Source: an uncultured Candidatus Saccharibacteria bacterium (lineage in GTDB: Bacteria > Patescibacteriota > Minisyncoccia > Phycocordibacterales > Phycocordibacteraceae). Taken from it: DNA of 53,818 nt. Shown piece after piece: positions 1 through 48,935 of this stretch. The notes beneath the pieces were generated by a model that saw nothing but the letters and a program-made list of their open reading frames with translations, was not told the DNA's origin and ran no database searches. How positions within the stretch are numbered: position 1 is the stretch's first letter; every line of letters starts with the position of its first letter. Location of the stretch: assembly GCA_964402535.1 (NCBI GenBank), contig CAYOCH010000004.1, forward strand, positions 1 to 53,818, given 5' to 3'. A program made the translations under genes and the position numbers.

Positions 1-583
1 AAGCGGTGGATTATGCGGCTTAATTCGTCGATAAACGAAGAACCTTACCAAGGTTAGAAATCCAACTGCATCCTTGTCGAAAGATGAGGAGCCTTCGAGG
101 GTGTTGGACAGGTGATGCATGGTCGTCGTCAGTTCGTGGTTTGAACTGTTCCCTTCAGTGGGGTAACGAACGCAACCCCCGTTGTCTGTTGCCTATATGG
201 CCAGGCGAGACTGCTCCCTCACGGGAGAGGAAGGTGGGGATGACGCCAGATCAGCATGTCCCTCTGATACCTTGGGCTGCACGCATAATACAATGGGCGG
301 TACAACGGGTTGCAATGCCGTAAGGCGGAGCTAATCCTTTAAAACCGCCCCCAGTACGGATTGAGGTCTGCAACCGACCTCATGAAGCCGGAATCGCTAG
401 TAATCGCAGGTCAGCCAAACTGCGGTGAATACGTTCTCGAGTCTTGTACTCACCGCCCGTCAACTCAAGGGAGCTGGGGGTGCCCGAAGGTCTGCCTCGC
501 GCAGGACTACGGCAAATTCAGTGACAAGGAGTAAGTCGTAACAAGGCACGGGTAGCGGAAGCTGTTCGTGGAACATATCCAAA
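1..583 (+). rRNA. rrs: 16S rRNA, 3' ~580 nt (the gene starts upstream of the window); divergent CPR-like sequence; 3' boundary approximate
   Basis: Universal 16S blocks are recognisable in order: AACGAAGAACCTTACC, GCATGGTCGTCGTCAG, AACGAACGCAACCC, GGAAGGTGGGGATGACG, GGAATCGCTAGTAATCG, GGTGAATACGTTC, CACCGCCCGTCA, AAGTCGTAACAAGG (533-546). Helix 45 with a GGAA loop follows (547-570). Several universal positions are substituted, e.g. GTACTCACCGCCCGTCAA. Confidence 0.9.
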
Positions 584-694
584 TTGGAATCGCTATCGCC
601 CGAAAGGCATAGCATGTCGATCATCTCTTCGGAGGTGGAGAGATAGCATTCGTCTCTAAACGATGCTCGGAAGCCGGATAACGTAACCCGGTGG

Positions 695-725
695 CGTTCG
701 AGAGCCGCATATGAGCTCTCGAACG
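695..725 (+). repeat. Perfect 11-bp stem hairpin in the post-16S spacer (possible processing stem)
   Basis: CGTTCGAGAGC (695-705) and GCTCTCGAACG (715-725) are exact reverse complements separated by a 9-nt loop. Confidence 0.5.
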
Positions 726-784
726 GGACAGAATAGGCGGAACAAAAGAGCGCATCACATCTTTCAACACACGATCACGTCAAC

Positions 785-806
785 AACGGCCGCAGGGCCG
801 TTTTTT
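785..806 (+). terminator. Intrinsic terminator downstream of 16S
   Basis: Stem CGGCC (787-791) / GGCCG (796-800) with loop GCAG, followed by TTTTTT (801-806). Confidence 0.7.
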
Positions 807-868
807 GACTTTTACGAGTTCAAGCTCTAAAGTCGTGCGCAGGCAGTTCTACTCGAGAGGAGATACTC

Positions 869-2519: not shown

Positions 2520-2525
2520 TATACT
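2520..2525 (+). promoter_or_regulatory. -10-like hexamer TATACT, 7 nt before ATG 2533
   Basis: ggcTATACT-gtagctc-ATG. Confidence 0.4.
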
Positions 2526-6188: not shown

Positions 6189-6252
6189 GCTCTCCTCACT
6201 CAAGATCGGTTACGATGTGCTGCTTCCGCGATCAAGTATACCGGCCACGGGA

Positions 6253-6282
6253 GAAAAAAGAACGGCTCCCGGAGGAGCCGTT
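6253..6282 (-). terminator. Intrinsic terminator (minus strand) after the frameshifted gene
   Basis: On the minus strand: AACGGCTCC-TCCG-GGAGCCGTT, followed by CTTTTTTCTC. Confidence 0.6.
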
Positions 6283-6297
6283 TGAGTCGCACGGAGA

Positions 6298-7111
6298 TCA
6301 TGAATTCCGCTTCACGATGAACAGGTTCCGGCGATCGGGATCCAGGCCGTCGTGCGTGTGCGCGAGGCCGGGGTGCTGGTCGAGCCGCTCGATCGCCTGG
6401 ACAGAGGTCACGTGTGCGCGCACCGCCTGCTCCATGAAGACGTATTCGAGGTTCAGGTACAGGCTCCCATCCTTCCGTTTCGTGCAGTCGTGCCAGTGCT
6501 CGTCGACGAACTCGCCCAGACGCCGGTTGTAGCGGCCGTGCACCGGGTGATCCAGGCGATGGTCGAATACGTCGGTCGGGATCGAGAAGTGCATGCACAT
6601 CTCGACTTCGCGCGCCGGAACGGCTCGTTTCGCGAACGCAGCGATGATGCTGCCCACCACGCTCACGTGCTCGCGCGTCGGTTCGCCCATGACCGCGCCG
6701 CGGTCGATGAGCGAGTCCCGTCCCGCGTGCGCGACGACAAGGTGCCTCCCTGATGAACGGGCAGCCCGCCGCGCTCATCATGAACGCGTCGCCGGGCTCG
6801 AGGAAGACGCCGTCGGCCGGCCGGTCATGGTTGCGGTACAGCTCCAGTCCGGCGAGGCCGATGGCCTCGGTCATCTCGAGCGTCTCCGCCACATAGCCGC
6901 TCGCCGCAGCGACGTTCGGCGCAAAGCACTTGCGTACGCCGAGGTTCATGAGCTGCAGCGAGAGCTCGCGCGCGAGATCCGTGTGTTTGTGCGTATCGCG
7001 TTTCGTCTGCAGCGGTTTGAGCGACCAATTCCTGATACCGCGCTTCTGCGCATCGTCCGGGCCGAGCGCGAGCACCGACACGTCCGGCCGGTCAAGCTGA
7101 TACGTATGCAT
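6298..7111 (-). pseudogene. Frameshifted gene; product possibly PgeF/YfiH (DUF152)-like
   Basis: A protein-like N-terminal part (MHTYQLDRPD...AFMMSAAGCPFI) lies in the frame of track ORF 6200..7234. A protein-like C-terminal part (HLVVAHAGRDSLIDRGAVMGEPTREH...RRNLFIVKRNS) lies in the frame of 6298..6690. The frames switch by one base near 6745-6760 (GGGAGG run). The C..P...HAG...RR arrangement recalls DUF152, but the family call is weak. Confidence 0.45.
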
Positions 7112-7206
7112 GTGAGTCTCCTCTGTCGGGGTTCTGGGATTCTTCCACAAGTGATTATAGGACAAAATCAGGATAAAGCAATGTATGCTCATGAAGCGCG
7201 GGCGTG

Positions 7207-8270: not shown

Positions 8271-8276
8271 TATACT
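8271..8276 (+). promoter_or_regulatory. -10-like hexamer TATACT with TGc extension, 7 nt before ATG 8284
   Basis: tTGcTATACT-agcgtga-ATG. Confidence 0.45.
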
Positions 8277-11316: not shown

Positions 11317-11322
11317 TATACT
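11317..11322 (+). promoter_or_regulatory. -10-like hexamer TATACT, 6 nt before ATG 11329
   Basis: tttttgTATACT-caaccc-ATG. Confidence 0.45.
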
Positions 11323-12180: not shown

Positions 12181-12236
12181 TGGTAAGCTCCTCCCGGAGC
12201 TCTTTCCGCCAACCAACCTACTGAAAGGAGAACGAG

Positions 12237-13736
12237 ATGGCATACCCTGTATGCTTCGTCATACCGCCCTCGCCGTTCCTCCTGGACGAGCGGGTGTTCC
12301 CATTCCTCGGGCCGCTCAAGGTCGCGGCCGTGCTCGAAGAAGCCAAGTATCCCGTCGAGGTGCTCGATCTGTCCGGCATCGGCAATTTCACCGATGCGGC
12401 GACCGGTCATGCGCAGGCGACGGATGCGCGGCGCTTCGGCATCACGGCCACGACGCCGCAGTTCCCGGCAGCGGTGCAGATCGCGAAAGCGATCCGCGCC
12501 GCGCAGCCACGCTCGCGCATCATCATCGGCGGGACGCATGCGACGCTCGTCGTCGCCGCGCTCCGCTATGAGCGTGCGCATGGCGCAGCCGGCCGTGCGC
12601 ATGCGGCGTACCATCAGCTCGAGGAGCACTTCGACGTGATCGTCGCCGGGGACGGGGAGGAGACTATCTTCCGCGCCCTCGCTGACGACCCGCCGAAGCT
12701 CATCGACGCCGACGACCGTGCGTCGCCGCACTTCCTCTCGAGCGCCAAGCTCGACGCGACGCCGTTCCCGGCGCGGCACCTGATCGACCTCGCGAGCTAC
12801 CGCTACGCGATCGACGGCGTCCCGGCCGTGTCGCTCATCGCCCAGCTCGGCTGCCCGTATCGGTGCGGATTCTGCGCCGGGCGGGACTCGCCGATGCTGC
12901 GGCACATCCGCATGCGCAGCGACGAGCAGATCATCCGCGAGATGACGATGCTCTACCGCGCCTATGGCTACCGCGGCTTCATGTTCTACGACGACGAGCT
13001 CAACGTGAACCCGAAGATGGCCGGCCTGATGCAGAAGATCGCGCGGGCCGGCCGCGACCTCGGCGTTGCGTGGAAGCTGCGCGGCTTCGTCAAGTCGGAG
13101 CGCTTCACCGACGAGCAGGCCGAGGCGATGCATGAGGCGGGATTCCGGCAGATCCTGGTCGGGTTCGAGTCAGGCGCGTCGCGTATCCTGGAGAACATCC
13201 AGAAGAACGCGACCTGCGCTGACAACGTGCGCTGCATCGAGATCGCGCGCAAGCGCGGGCTCACGGTGAAGGCGCTCATGTCGCTCGGGCATCCGGGCGA
13301 GTCAGAGGCGACGATCCGCGAGACGGAGCGCTGGCTCATCAACGTCGCGCCGCACGATTTCGACGCGACCATCGTGACCCCGTATCCCGGTTCGCCGTAC
13401 TACGACCGGGCGCGGCTCTCCGGTTCTGAAGGAGACGGGACGCCGGTATGGGTGTACGCCGCAGAGAACGGCGACCGCATTTACGAGCGCGAGGTCGACT
13501 ACAGCCGGGAAGCGGACTATTACAAAGGCGCCCCGGATGACGGGTATGTGTCGCACGTGTGGACCGATCACGTCTCGTCGCGCGACCTCGTGTCGCTGCG
13601 CAACGAGCTCGAGACGCGCGTCCGTACGGCGCTTCGCATCCCGTTCTACGGCAGCCGCCCCGCGATGCTCTATGAGCATTCGATGGGTCAGGCGCCGCCG
13701 CCCCACATCTTGAGGCGTTCAAAGCCCCTCGTTTGA
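12237..13736 (+). CDS. B12-binding-domain radical SAM protein (499 aa)
   Basis: The N-terminal ~130 aa resemble a cobalamin-binding Rossmann domain (IIIGGTHATLV). Radical SAM cluster motif CPYRCGFC. AAGGAGA lies 5 nt before the ATG. Confidence 0.75.
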   Translation: MAYPVCFVIPPSPFLLDERVFPFLGPLKVAAVLEEAKYPVEVLDLSGIGNFTDAATGHAQATDARRFGITATTPQFPAAVQIAKAIRAAQPRSRIIIGGTHATLVVAALRYERAHGAAGRAHAAYHQLEEHFDVIVAGDGEETIFRALADDPPKLIDADDRASPHFLSSAKLDATPFPARHLIDLASYRYAIDGVPAVSLIAQLGCPYRCGFCAGRDSPMLRHIRMRSDEQIIREMTMLYRAYGYRGFMFYDDELNVNPKMAGLMQKIARAGRDLGVAWKLRGFVKSERFTDEQAEAMHEAGFRQILVGFESGASRILENIQKNATCADNVRCIEIARKRGLTVKALMSLGHPGESEATIRETERWLINVAPHDFDATIVTPYPGSPYYDRARLSGSEGDGTPVWVYAAENGDRIYEREVDYSREADYYKGAPDDGYVSHVWTDHVSSRDLVSLRNELETRVRTALRIPFYGSRPAMLYEHSMGQAPPPHILRRSKPLV

Positions 13737-35630: not shown

Positions 35631-36344
35631 TTACCGTTTCTTTGCCAGTGCGATGACGCTGGTGCCGAAAGGGAGGGACAGCGTCGGGATGACGGAATCT
35701 TCGCCGGCGACGATTCCGTAGAAGAGTCGGTCGAGCCATCGCGGCAGCTGTGTGGCGCTCTCACCGCTCTTGCCTGCGAGCCGCACCAGTGCGGCAGGGA
35801 TGAAAAGGAGCATGTTCCAATAGCTCGCGTAGCTCACGTCGAAACCGTTCTCTTCGAGCGCCTGGACGAGCGTACGGCACGTATAGCGGCGGAAATGCAG
35901 CGCTGCCTCATCGAACTTCGTCCACAAGAATTGGTATGCCGGCACGTTCACGATGAGTCGGCCGCCTGGCGCGAGCAGCTTCGAGAGCGACGCAAGGAAC
36001 GGGCGCTCATCCGCGACGTGTTCAAGCACGTCAAAGAGGGCGATGAGGTCGAACTGCCCGGCGCGTTCGTCGGCGAGCACGCCTATATCGGTCGCGTCAG
36101 ACACCTCTGCGTATCCGCGAGCGTGGCACGATTCGCGCGCGAGCGTATTAGGCTCAAAGGCGGTCACGTGGCCGTAGCGCGAGAGCAAAGGTAACTGCGC
36201 GCCGAGGCCGGCGCCGACATCGAGTATCCGCAGGTCGCGTCCCGCGCCGAAGGAGTCGAGGATCTTCTTCGCCGTGTGCGATCGCCCGTCGTGCCACCAG
36301 CTCCCCTCGGCCTCGTGCATGATGGTATAGGCTTCCTGCCGCAT
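35631..36344 (-). CDS. Class I SAM-dependent methyltransferase
   Basis: ILDVGAGLGAQLPLLSRYGHVTAFEPN, FDLIALFDVLEHV, LAPGGRLIVNVPA. Convergent with the preceding gene, with zero spacing. Confidence 0.8.
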   Translation of the reverse strand: MRQEAYTIMHEAEGSWWHDGRSHTAKKILDSFGAGRDLRILDVGAGLGAQLPLLSRYGHVTAFEPNTLARESCHARGYAEVSDATDIGVLADERAGQFDLIALFDVLEHVADERPFLASLSKLLAPGGRLIVNVPAYQFLWTKFDEAALHFRRYTCRTLVQALEENGFDVSYASYWNMLLFIPAALVRLAGKSGESATQLPRWLDRLFYGIVAGEDSVIPTLSLPFGTSVIALAKKR

Positions 36345-36352
36345 TGCTCCGC

Positions 36353-36358
36353 AGTATA
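36353..36358 (-). promoter_or_regulatory. -10-like hexamer TATACT (minus strand), 8 nt before ATG 36344
   Basis: Minus strand reads gggTATACT-gcggagca-ATG. Confidence 0.4.
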
Positions 36359-36370
36359 CCCCGGGCGTAG

Positions 36371-36376
36371 TAGAAT
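36371..36376 (+). promoter_or_regulatory. -10-like hexamer TAGAAT, 6 nt before GTG 36383
   Basis: TAGAAT-aggccg-GTG. It lies back-to-back with the minus-strand hexamer inside a 38-bp divergent spacer. Confidence 0.35.
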
Positions 36377-36382
36377 AGGCCG

Positions 36383-36799
36383 GTGGCGCTTACGCTCATC
36401 CGATATGCGATATCCGGCGGCCTCGGGGCCGTCGTGCAGTCGGCGTTCCTCTATGTCTGGGTCTCCGTGCTCGGGCTTGAGCGCGATTATCTCTGGGGCG
36501 CGGTGCTCGGCTTCTGCATCGCACTTGCCGTGAGCTTCTCGCTGCAGAAGTATTGGACATTCCGCAACCGCATGCCGGGCACGGTCAGGCGACAGTTCAC
36601 GACCTACGGGATGATCGCCGTCCTGAACCTCGTGCTCATCACGCTCTCGCTCGAGATCGCACGGAACATCTTCACGGCGCGCGGCCTCGATTTCTTCGAC
36701 GGCTGGTACCTGCTCGTGCAGCTCGTCGTAATCGCGGCCGTCTCGGTGATGAGTTTTTATCTCAACTCCCTCTTTACATTCAAGAACGACGCGGTATGA
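36383..36799 (+). CDS. GtrA-family membrane protein (138 aa)
   Basis: Four hydrophobic segments. Family-like motifs YAISGGLGAVVQSAFLYVWV and SLQKYWTFRN. GTG start. Confidence 0.7.
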   Translation: MALTLIRYAISGGLGAVVQSAFLYVWVSVLGLERDYLWGAVLGFCIALAVSFSLQKYWTFRNRMPGTVRRQFTTYGMIAVLNLVLITLSLEIARNIFTARGLDFFDGWYLLVQLVVIAAVSVMSFYLNSLFTFKNDAV

Positions 36800-48929: not shown

Positions 48930-48935
48930 TATACT
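48930..48935 (+). promoter_or_regulatory. -10-like hexamer TATACT, 6 nt before ATG 48942
   Basis: ggcTATACT-ggtcgc-ATG. Confidence 0.45.

Follow-up and report, generated by a model that had tools for sequence, protein, structure and literature searches.

Loss of the anti-Shine-Dalgarno core from the 16S rRNA of a Paceibacteria genome, with apparently leaderless gene starts and a structured 3' trailer

The 53,818-nucleotide stretch of DNA analysed here (the window) is one contig, C4, of a 0.70-Mb genome, G000, which comprises 703,545 bases in 19 contigs, is rated 100% complete and belongs to the Paceibacteria (Parcubacteria, candidate phyla radiation). The window opens inside the 16S rRNA gene (rrs), and the subject of this report is the 3' end of that gene. 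Pairing between the Shine-Dalgarno (SD) sequence of an mRNA and its anti-SD counterpart in the 16S rRNA is the textbook way in which bacterial ribosomes locate start codons, and few 16S rRNA bases are as strongly conserved as those of the CCUCC tail. In this organism the anti-SD core has truly been lost through evolution from the single 16S rRNA, as it has throughout the order and in many other families of the class. Sequence statistics on gene starts, obtained with a working positive control, suggest a mechanism that we hold to be right with a probability of roughly 80%: genes would start without SD pairing and largely from leaderless mRNAs, the idle anti-SD would have decayed, and the bases at its old positions would be retained by a hairpin in the rRNA precursor.

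The 3' end of the gene is made up of the following features (coordinates are those of the window).

1-583, plus strand: 16S rRNA gene, 3' part of the genome's only rrs (Rfam RF00177, model positions 927-1533; score 487.9 bits, gathering threshold 50)
547-570, plus strand: helix 45, intact, with GGAA loop (CACGGGTAGC at 547-556, GGAA at 557-560, GCTGTTCGTG at 561-570)
571-583, plus strand: 16S 3' tail GAACAUAUCCAAA in place of GAUCACCUCCUUA, from the alignment to the Rfam bacterial small-subunit (SSU) model

All ten pairs of helix 45 are kept in each of the 29 sequences of the genus (100% of cells paired), two of them with compensatory change. Directly downstream, bases 571-583 read GAACATATCCAAA, where the consensus of the Rfam model reads GAUcACCUCCUUu, and UAUCC (576-580) occupies the position of CCUCC. 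The plus strand of the window holds no CCTCC between positions 541 and 810. A previous sequence-only reading of the window had claimed that the 16S terminus lacks a canonical CCUCC and that it follows an intact helix 45 with a GGAA loop; as checks, it had proposed an alignment to an SSU covariance model, a search for a second rrs and a tally of the motifs before start codons. Both claims are borne out, the former by the model alignment with its noncanonical tail and by the lack of CCTCC, the latter by the sequence, the model and the genus sequences.

The rrs gene is split at a contig break. Its 5' part lies on another contig (G000:C17:9969-10818; RF00177, 768.1 bits, model positions 9-902), and since C17 stops at model position 902 and the window begins at 927, about 24 model positions are missing. 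A search of the genome for a second rrs found none, and therefore the gene is present once, broken by an assembly gap. The aberrant tail might be thought an artefact of the region around 570-585, produced by misassembly, by a chimeric contig or by truncation to a pseudogene copy, given that the gene is distributed over two contigs, the window starts inside it and positions 800-2400 are low in GC. We give this possibility next to no credence: 28 further assemblies from the genus, made independently, have the same junction of helix 45, tail and trailer over 245 nt, the end of the trailer pairs with the leader on the other contig, and there is no second rrs. The related suggestion that the low-GC island had truncated this rrs copy is likewise rejected, as homology of the trailer within the genus continues to about position 765, and 731-765 pairs with the leader on C17.

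The loss is widespread. Positions 300-800 of the window were used to search 40 relatives, 31 of which matched; of 29 loci read at the 3' end, one is the window itself and one ends before the tail, leaving 27 readable relatives, all of which lack CCTCC in the tail (27/27). The tail consensus within the genus is GGAACAT(A/T)TCC, and eleven other families of the same order carry tails such as GGAATATTTCA, GGATTAATTCA and similar ones. A scan for the helix 45 variant, with one genome per species, returned at least 119 records, and among these matches listed none has CCTCC at the tail position (0/119), while three have it 20-35 nt downstream, within hairpins. The titles among the matches listed include Candidatus Paceibacteria/Paceibacterota, the Parcubacteria group and Kaiser-, Nomura-, Taylor-, Lloyd-, Staskawicz- and Zambryskiibacteria; many of those listed that come from one submitter bear the label “uncultured Candidatus Saccharibacteria”. 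Across the class the tail is variable: 58 distinct 13-mers are present among the 119 records listed.

An even draw from the class comprised 301 genomes, 177 of which contain the rrs word AAGTCGTAACAAGG. The canonical core, defined as this word followed by CCTCC at 27-32 nt, is present in 71 of the 301 genomes and absent from 106 of the 177 that hold the word. Its retention goes by family: CCTCC is kept in 7/8, 11/12 and 3/3 genomes of families f27, f176 and f168, and is found in none of f163 (0/12), f175 (0/12), f18 (0/5) and f165, where the rrs word is present in 7, 6, 4 and 4 genomes, respectively. In a draw from the whole phylum the canonical pattern occurs in 213 of 401 genomes, a count that has no denominator of rrs-bearing genomes and hence gives no loss rate. 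A further rrs 3' fragment, ending in a GGATCACCTCC tail, occurs on a small contig of one genus genome (G024:C6:12-305); because its helix 45 is of the ordinary bacterial type, this contig is probably contamination. In G402, a 1.1-Mb genome of the same phylum and another class, the pattern of a CCTCC-bearing rrs 3' end matches 31 times (11 forward, 20 reverse), which is a repeat or an assembly oddity.

Genes were predicted with a home-made caller that takes open reading frames (ORFs) of at least 300 nt, applies a codon model derived from the genome's own long ORFs and sets starts by coding score and a start-codon prior, using no upstream information; it returned 494-505 genes covering 76% of the genome. 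No purine peak precedes the starts, and SD 4-mers are not enriched: 49 of 494 genes have one at -18..-5, versus 58 in the control stretch -58..-45. The same script applied to 100 kb of Escherichia coli K-12 found SD 4-mers in 37 of 73 genes versus 5, and thus the method detects SD sequences where they are present. Pairing of the genome's own tail with -22..-3 averages -2.68 kcal/mol, compared to -2.74 and -2.73 for the controls and -2.63 for the tail read backwards, and the canonical tail gives -4.04 kcal/mol versus -4.27 and -4.44. GGATAT is found twice at -20..-4 versus four times at -40..-21. In sum, the tally of upstream motifs, extended to their complementarity to the tails, yields no SD signal and no motif that matches the tail.

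These values bear on the idea that tail and messages have changed together, so that GGAUAU-like boxes of the mRNA would pair with AUAUCC of the new tail. One relative does carry AAGGATAT before the start of its orthologue of the gene at 12237. A co-evolved pair is nonetheless highly improbable, given duplex energies equal to those of the controls, the scarcity of GGATAT and the variability of the tail; moreover, Amin et al. 2018 (PMC6107228) found no such pair among 128 organisms without an anti-SD. The sequence-only reading had offered three explanations for the missing CCUCC, and the first of them, a noncanonical mature 3' end, is supported by the conservation of a CCUCC-less tail over the order and much of the class and by the lack of an SD signal at genes.

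What does precede the genes is a promoter-like box. TANNNT is present at -15..-12 in 171 of 494 genes, as opposed to 17 and 24 in two control stretches; its start peaks at -12, with 79 genes, and 36, 41 and 21 genes have it at -13, -14 and -15, respectively, compared to about 5 per position elsewhere. Among the genes with a divergent upstream neighbour, 48 of 118 have the box. The most enriched upstream 6-mers are TATACT and TGCTAT, and when the sequences are anchored on the box, the frequency of G at -2 is 0.67 and that of T at -3 is 0.47. The resulting motif, TGnTAnnnT, is an extended -10 box, with a TGn that we take to be the extended -10 element of sigma-70 promoters; a -35 signal is faint. 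In about a third of the genes this box ends 6-9 nt ahead of the start codon. In 73% of the genes the start codon is preceded by C or T at -1, and a pyrimidine-purine step is a fitting context for the start of transcription. Examples of the arrangement in the window are given below.

8271-8276, plus strand: extended -10 box TGcTATACT, 7 nt before ATG 8284, an example of a leaderless-type promoter
11317-11322, plus strand: extended -10 box TGtATACT, 6 nt before ATG 11329
2520-2525, plus strand: -10 box TATACT, 7 nt before ATG 2533
48930-48935, plus strand: -10 box TATACT, 6 nt before ATG 48942

From the position of the box we infer that transcription would start at or next to the start codon, yielding leaderless mRNAs for most first genes. 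At window positions 36330-36390 two divergent genes, with a minus-strand ATG 36344 and a plus-strand GTG 36383, have starts separated by 39 nt, and the 38-nt gap that they share holds a -10-like box for each of them.

The two signals were also counted in other genomes of the phylum, as follows.

G629, no CCTCC: box in 71/182 genes (controls 25, 19); SD 4-mers 11 versus control 15
G505, no CCTCC: box in 30/87 (controls 4, 12); SD 4-mers 12 versus control 8
G507, no CCTCC: box in 44/173 (controls 27, 13); SD 4-mers 16 versus control 19
G601, class-mate that keeps CCTCC: box in 74/305 (controls 11, 21); SD 4-mers 32/305 versus 24
G666, class-mate that keeps CCTCC: box in 12/153 (controls 6, 3); SD 4-mers 20/153 versus 24
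G503, class-mate that keeps CCTCC: box in 11/73 (controls 8, 9); SD 4-mers 5/73 versus 4
G091, other class, keeps CCTCC: box in 26/151 (controls 19, 16); SD 4-mers 20/151 versus 9
G276, other class, keeps CCTCC: box in 49/185 (controls 25, 24); SD 4-mers 7/185 versus 12

SD use is low in all eight Patescibacteria genomes examined, G000 included. The box is strongest in the genomes without CCTCC. In the three sampled class-mates with CCUCC retained, SD use is just as undetectable; the anti-SD was therefore probably idle already and then decayed under relaxed selection. Drawn from eight related genomes, this is a lead rather than a test.

Another constraint still acts on the old anti-SD positions: they supply the 5' arm of a small hairpin that spans the end of the tail.

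578-588, plus strand: mini hairpin UCCA-AAU-UGGA, in which U578-A581 pairs with U585-A588, i.e., former anti-SD bases with the first bases of the trailer

The pairing was assessed by taking the 3-mer that ends at the last C of the tail and seeking its exact complement 3-6 nt downstream, with permutation of the downstream parts as the null. The complement is found in 100 of 133 distinct tails, compared to 59.6 ± 3.5 (maximum 71) in 1000 permutations. The arms covary: TCC goes with GGA in 39/40 cases, TTC with GAA in 53/64, CTC with GAG in 6/7 and GTC with GAC in 2/2. An earlier version of the test, which gave 122/142 with a mean of 69.2 after shuffling, used a null that was too permissive and is superseded by this permutation of each tail's own complement. 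Similar parts are present in relatives that keep a canonical tail: in 11 of 12 relatives with GGATCACCTCCTTTCTA, the minimum free energy fold of the first 110 nt pairs at least two of the five CCUCC bases with the downstream trailer, and in 10 of the 12 relatives keeping CCTCC a GTCGAT-like word and then a stem follow the canonical tail. The hairpin and the GUCGAU motif are therefore ancestral parts of the precursor, located around and after the canonical mature end.

Most likely, the mini hairpin exists only in the precursor, and the mature 3' end of the 16S rRNA would lie near 583, within or adjoining the loop of that hairpin. Its placement is based on the recurrence of the hairpin, GUCGAU and the leader-trailer stem in relatives with a canonical tail, and it fits the fall of identity to the window within the genus from 0.98 (573-582) to 0.77 (583-592) and 0.55 (593-602). 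In each of the 24 RNA runs listed at most 0.12 of the sampled words were present, and no run had half or more. Contigs from the runs X1, X2, X3 and X7, taken at 90% likeness, cannot show ends; they cover the gene up to the bin 573-593, with none in 594-635, and mostly represent conserved 16S rRNA of other organisms. Positions 640-741 are covered by one 160-nt contig from X3, at a depth of 4.3 and with 10 differing letters, and six loose ends from X1 diverge from the window after 572.

Downstream of the hairpin, the trailer folds into an elaborate structure.

592-613, plus strand: trailer hairpin 2, GAAA loop, varying stem; two innermost pairs counted, both compensatory
616-621, plus strand: GUCGAU, conserved single-stranded motif, invariant in 29/29 genus sequences
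622-637, plus strand: trailer hairpin 3, CAUCUC-UUCG-GAGGUG; 7/7 pairs compensatory, 95.3% of cells paired; includes a stretch that had been read as a displaced anti-SD look-alike
638-667, plus strand: pseudoknot of GAGA (638-641) with UCUC (653-656), inside the loop of hairpin 4; 98.3% of cells paired
645-652 with 661-667, plus strand: trailer hairpin 4; 7/7 pairs compensatory
673-692, plus strand: trailer hairpin 5 with conserved loop AUAACGUAAC; 100% of cells paired, 3/5 pairs compensatory
698-722, plus strand: trailer hairpin 6; 5/7 pairs of the outer helix compensatory
731-765, plus strand: 3' strand of the pre-16S processing stem; pairs with the leader (L001 1461-1494 = C17:9929-9962)
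785-808, plus strand: intrinsic terminator of the rrs transcription unit; 7-pair stem (785-802), then a T run

RNAalifold, applied to the 29 genus sequences, predicted 51 pairs, 27 of which show compensatory change. In our own structure, which includes the pseudoknot, 97.8% of the cells are paired, whereas sliding the partners by 1-3 columns leaves 35.5-39.8%; compensatory change is present in 30 of 47 pairs, and none of 500 shuffles reached any of five measures; the structure was derived in part from the sequences on which it was tested, which favours it somewhat, and the sequences are kin. One pair of the pseudoknot is AU in 15 sequences and GC in 14. The loops GUCGAU, UCUCUAAACG and AUAACGUAAC are conserved, and some hairpins differ in length: hairpin 3 reaches about 100 nt in relative L031, and hairpin 6 is expanded in L015. 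How far the genus-type trailer extends was judged by eye and by motif counts, according to which G[TG]CG[AG]T is present in 108 of 138 trailers of the wider CCTCC-less group.

The whole element is enclosed with the 16S rRNA by a processing stem. The inverted match between 731-765 and the leader amounts to 87% over 38 nt, the leader strand ends about 6 nt before the 5' end of the 16S rRNA, and the same inverted leader-trailer pair is found in 8 relatives. In E. coli and other bacteria, pairing of leader and trailer also encloses the 16S rRNA and is processed by RNase III. Here, in contrast, the stem lies about 6 nt before the 5' end of the 16S rRNA and some 147 nt after the tail, and six covarying helices and the pseudoknot stand between. 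At L001 1361-1430 (G000:C17:9829-9898) a putative rrs promoter, TTGACA - 17 nt - TAGTAT, precedes a GC-rich hairpin of the leader, which carries a U run and resembles a terminator or an antitermination element.

G000 encodes RNase III, an RNB-family exonuclease (RNase R-like, with an S1 domain), YbeY and a member of the KsgA/RsmA family. Removal of the structured trailer is feasible, since YbeY and the exonuclease with its S1 domain, which presumably act in this step, are both encoded. A four-domain S1 protein is also present, and a 90-amino-acid ORF just upstream of the ybeY gene (G000:C1:82186-82767) matches bS21 at 22.3 bits, below the cut-off of 27, and may be a divergent bS21. Other factors are missing from the genome: the best hit to Era has 25.2 bits against a cut-off of 116, RbfA was not found in G000, and the uL1 family PF00687 gives no candidate in this 100% complete genome and was detected in 14 of 14 control genomes. 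According to one paper, the KH domain of Era reads GAUCACCUCC (PMC10582724), and a 2025 survey gives era as mostly absent in Paceibacteria (PMC12641178).

The trailer at 589-730 is most likely an element of pre-rRNA processing or assembly, and it is the one really unexplained object in this analysis, with a small chance of being kept or released as a functional RNA. Stated as an alternative, the mature 16S rRNA would be longer, with 589-730 staying on as a 3' extension, or the element would be released as a small RNA, and in either form it would take part in mRNA recruitment. Its position inside the processing stem together with the 16S rRNA is in keeping with this view, as are the marks of selection (pairing far above that of the slid controls, compensatory changes, pseudoknot and conserved loops). 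No Rfam family matches it at gathering thresholds or at E values up to 10, apart from one chance hit of 9.2 bits, and stable RNA structure would hinder 3' exonucleases. However, the same order of parts (hairpin, GTCGAT, stem) follows the canonical tail in the 10 of 12 relatives described above, which makes the element a spacer by homology, identity falls right after 582, and YbeY and an RNase R-like enzyme are encoded. We consider this alternative unlikely, and prefer the reading in which the trailer is removed.

The remaining alternative is a displaced anti-SD, in which UCUCUUC (624-630) or another stretch of the trailer would pair with GAGGAGA boxes of mRNAs. The sequence-only reading had pointed out GATCATCTCTTC at 619-630 as a look-alike of the lost core and had noted three boxes of identical spacing.

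857-863, plus strand: purine box GAGGAGA, 5 nt before ATG 869; ORF 869-1390 has no Pfam match, a coding score of 0.02 (typical 0.39) and a GC3 of 0.66
7117-7123, minus strand: purine box GAGGAGA + CTCAC + ATG 7111; ORF 6200-7111 (minus strand) has no Pfam match and a coding score of -0.21 and was not called by the gene caller
12225-12231, plus strand: purine box AAGGAGA + 5 nt + ATG 12237, where a B12-binding radical SAM gene begins

The coordinates given for the look-alike and for AGAGAT (639-644) are correct, and the three boxes of the form (G/A)AGGAGA + 5 nt + ATG exist as described, although only the gene at 12237 has family support and a good coding score. ORF 869-1390 falls in the 1.6-kb low-GC stretch (0.48-0.55 versus 0.61 for the genome) and is of doubtful or foreign character. 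The proposed hairpin of ATCTCT (623-628) with AGAGAT is not supported by covariation, which instead backs pairing of 622-627 with 632-637 across a UUCG loop, and of 638-641 with 653-656.

Seven positions could indeed pair between box and look-alike, and the boxes are in excess at the 5-nt gap: RAGGAGA + 5 nt + ATG occurs 19 times in the genome, compared to 0-10 times at gaps of 0-4 and 6-14, and 16 of 494 genes have a GGAG that starts at -11 or -10, versus 2-3 per position elsewhere. Yet the stretch in question is the 5' arm and loop of hairpin 3, all seven pairs of which vary by compensation, and the look-alike sequence is therefore not conserved; the genus reads CATCGATC, CATTTTC, CTGATTC and others at this place, and its alignment has no conserved pyrimidine stretch at a fixed single-stranded position. 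SD words are not enriched before genes overall, and the orthologues of gene 12237, the only SD-like gene traced in relatives, are present in 2 of 24 genus genomes and have AAGGAT boxes, not GGAG. The 26 of 499 genes with a well-placed SD-like 5-mer have a lower codon fit (0.30 versus 0.39 per codon; Mann-Whitney p = 2e-4) and a lower GC3 (0.79 versus 0.82; p = 0.003). With a partner so variable, the pairing of GAGGAGA with UCUCUUC is rejected, and a displaced anti-SD in general is most improbable; the boxes are a small excess and sit on compositionally atypical genes. Nor is there support for the related proposal that an expansion segment separates helix 45 from a displaced tail: there is no CCUCC further on, the look-alike is unconserved, and GTCGAT plus a stem follows the canonical end in relatives with GGATCACCTCC, which marks the trailer element as spacer. 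The SD-like boxes themselves are probably baggage of atypical, acquired genes, which is the weakest part of our account.

The surroundings of the gene offer some further observations. GC drops at 800-2451, between the rrs terminator and tRNA-Ile(GAT) at 2376-2451, and this stretch has two ORFs with poor coding score, one of them with a weak HTH_23 match of 25.2 bits. The whole 53.8-kb window contains no 23S rRNA gene, and rrs is therefore unlinked to rrl here. Several genus genomes carry insertions of about 0.9-1 kb in the 3' domain of rrs, at sites matching window positions 451/452 and 539/540 (G007:C1:348-1764, G006:C6:11312-12719, G017:C1:905131-906518, G023:C4:82631-83904 and G016:C35:11421-12019). 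The site 539/540 lies directly 5' of AACAAGG, and insertions of this kind are typical of rRNA genes of the candidate phyla radiation.

The preferred mechanism can now be put together. The -10 box would place the start of transcription at or adjoining the start codon, such that most first genes would be leaderless and need no SD pairing, and the remaining genes would start without the help of an SD. An anti-SD left idle would decay under relaxed selection, while RNA-RNA pairing in the precursor, between the 5' arm of the mini hairpin and the first trailer bases, would continue to constrain its old positions by covariation. RNase III, YbeY and RNase R would then remove the structured trailer at 589-730.

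Several points weigh against this mechanism. The box is missing from 323 of 494 genes, whose mode of initiation it does not account for, and some of the called starts are surely wrong, with short genes missed by the home-made caller. The small excess of SD-like boxes is real, and acquisition of the genes explains it only loosely; some of the low-scoring ORFs may be miscalls. Loss and leaderless starts are themselves loosely linked, as G601 keeps CCUCC and has the box in 74 of 305 genes, and G666 and G503, which keep CCUCC too, have few boxes (12/153 and 11/73), and the Patescibacteria genomes compared are kin rather than independent. The mature 3' end near 583 is placed by sequence comparison, as are the transcription starts at the start codons, and the covariation and pseudoknot of the trailer exceed the needs of a plain spacer.

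Part of this picture is known. Tsurumaki et al. 2022 (RNA 28:1041, PMC9297842) detected CCTCCT in only 48% of the 16S genes of Parcubacteria and report that lineages with no anti-SD overlap with a group lacking uL1. Their subgroup belongs to the same group of organisms and has the same loss, and G000 likewise has no uL1 gene. Since the loss had thus been noted for Parcubacteria, the bare finding is not new. That paper does not mention “leaderless” and, in its accessible part, gives a detection rate and no replacement sequence; beyond it go the tail consensus, the covarying hairpin of the precursor, the finding that genes carry neither an SD nor a new variant of it, the -10 box at position -12 and the structure of the trailer. 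Amin et al. 2018 (PMC6107228) found in 128 organisms without an anti-SD that SD motifs were missing as well, and Parcubacteria are not mentioned in that paper. According to the same paper, some genera of Bacteroidetes, as well as Mycoplasma, Carsonella and Hodgkinia, all without an anti-SD, likewise have a 13-base tail without CCUCCU, lost it family-wise and use neither an SD nor a variant SD (PMC6107228). Those genera and endosymbionts are scattered, whereas in the present case many families within one large class have lost the motif (106/177). Bacteria lacking an anti-SD were reportedly also treated by Lim et al. in 2012.

Other systems share single traits. In Actinobacteria and Deinococcus, which are rich in leaderless genes (the “leaderless” class of GeneMarkS-2), a -10 box precedes the start codon of many genes by a short and constant spacing, and these bacteria keep the anti-SD and use SD sequences on leadered genes. 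The box is alike in G000, but both the anti-SD and SD use are missing. Initiation of the Bacteroidetes type makes little use of SD sequences, with a CCUCC that is kept and masked by proteins. SD use is similarly low here, yet CCUCC is gone, and the bS21-like ORF is below the cut-off. The mRNAs of mammalian mitochondria are leaderless. Their SSU rRNA lacks an anti-SD (PMC10582724). Mitochondria are organelles with added proteins, and the parallel is functional rather than one of descent. In open papers and bioRxiv, no paper was found that links leaderless starts to Parcubacteria, Patescibacteria, CPR, Paceibacteria or Saccharibacteria, which is not proof of absence, and the trailer structure was not found in print there either. 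The proposed combination, in which starts are SD-free and largely leaderless, an idle anti-SD has decayed and a hairpin of the precursor retains the bases, would thus go beyond the literature found, and the added value of this analysis lies in the mechanism and in the structured trailer as a new target of study.

For practice, a diverse and abundant class of uncultured bacteria that largely lacks CCUCC and apparently relies on leaderless starts means that gene finders that score SD sequences will misplace starts, that 16S 3' ends will be misannotated, and that attempts to express these genes in hosts that use SD sequences, or the converse, may not succeed. The loss is linked to the missing Era, RbfA and uL1. 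In a more far-reaching version, initiation would be wholly SD-independent and mostly leaderless, and the trailer RNA of about 145 nt would be functional, either as a 3' extension near the mRNA exit or platform of the ribosome or as a released small RNA; this is possible, though improbable. If true, a large free-standing bacterial lineage would resemble mitochondria in its translation start, and a trailer extension would sit at the usual site of the SD helix. In terms of evolution, the preferred mechanism would mean that an anti-SD can decay once the use of SD sequences is gone, and that a hairpin of the precursor then keeps the bases in its place.

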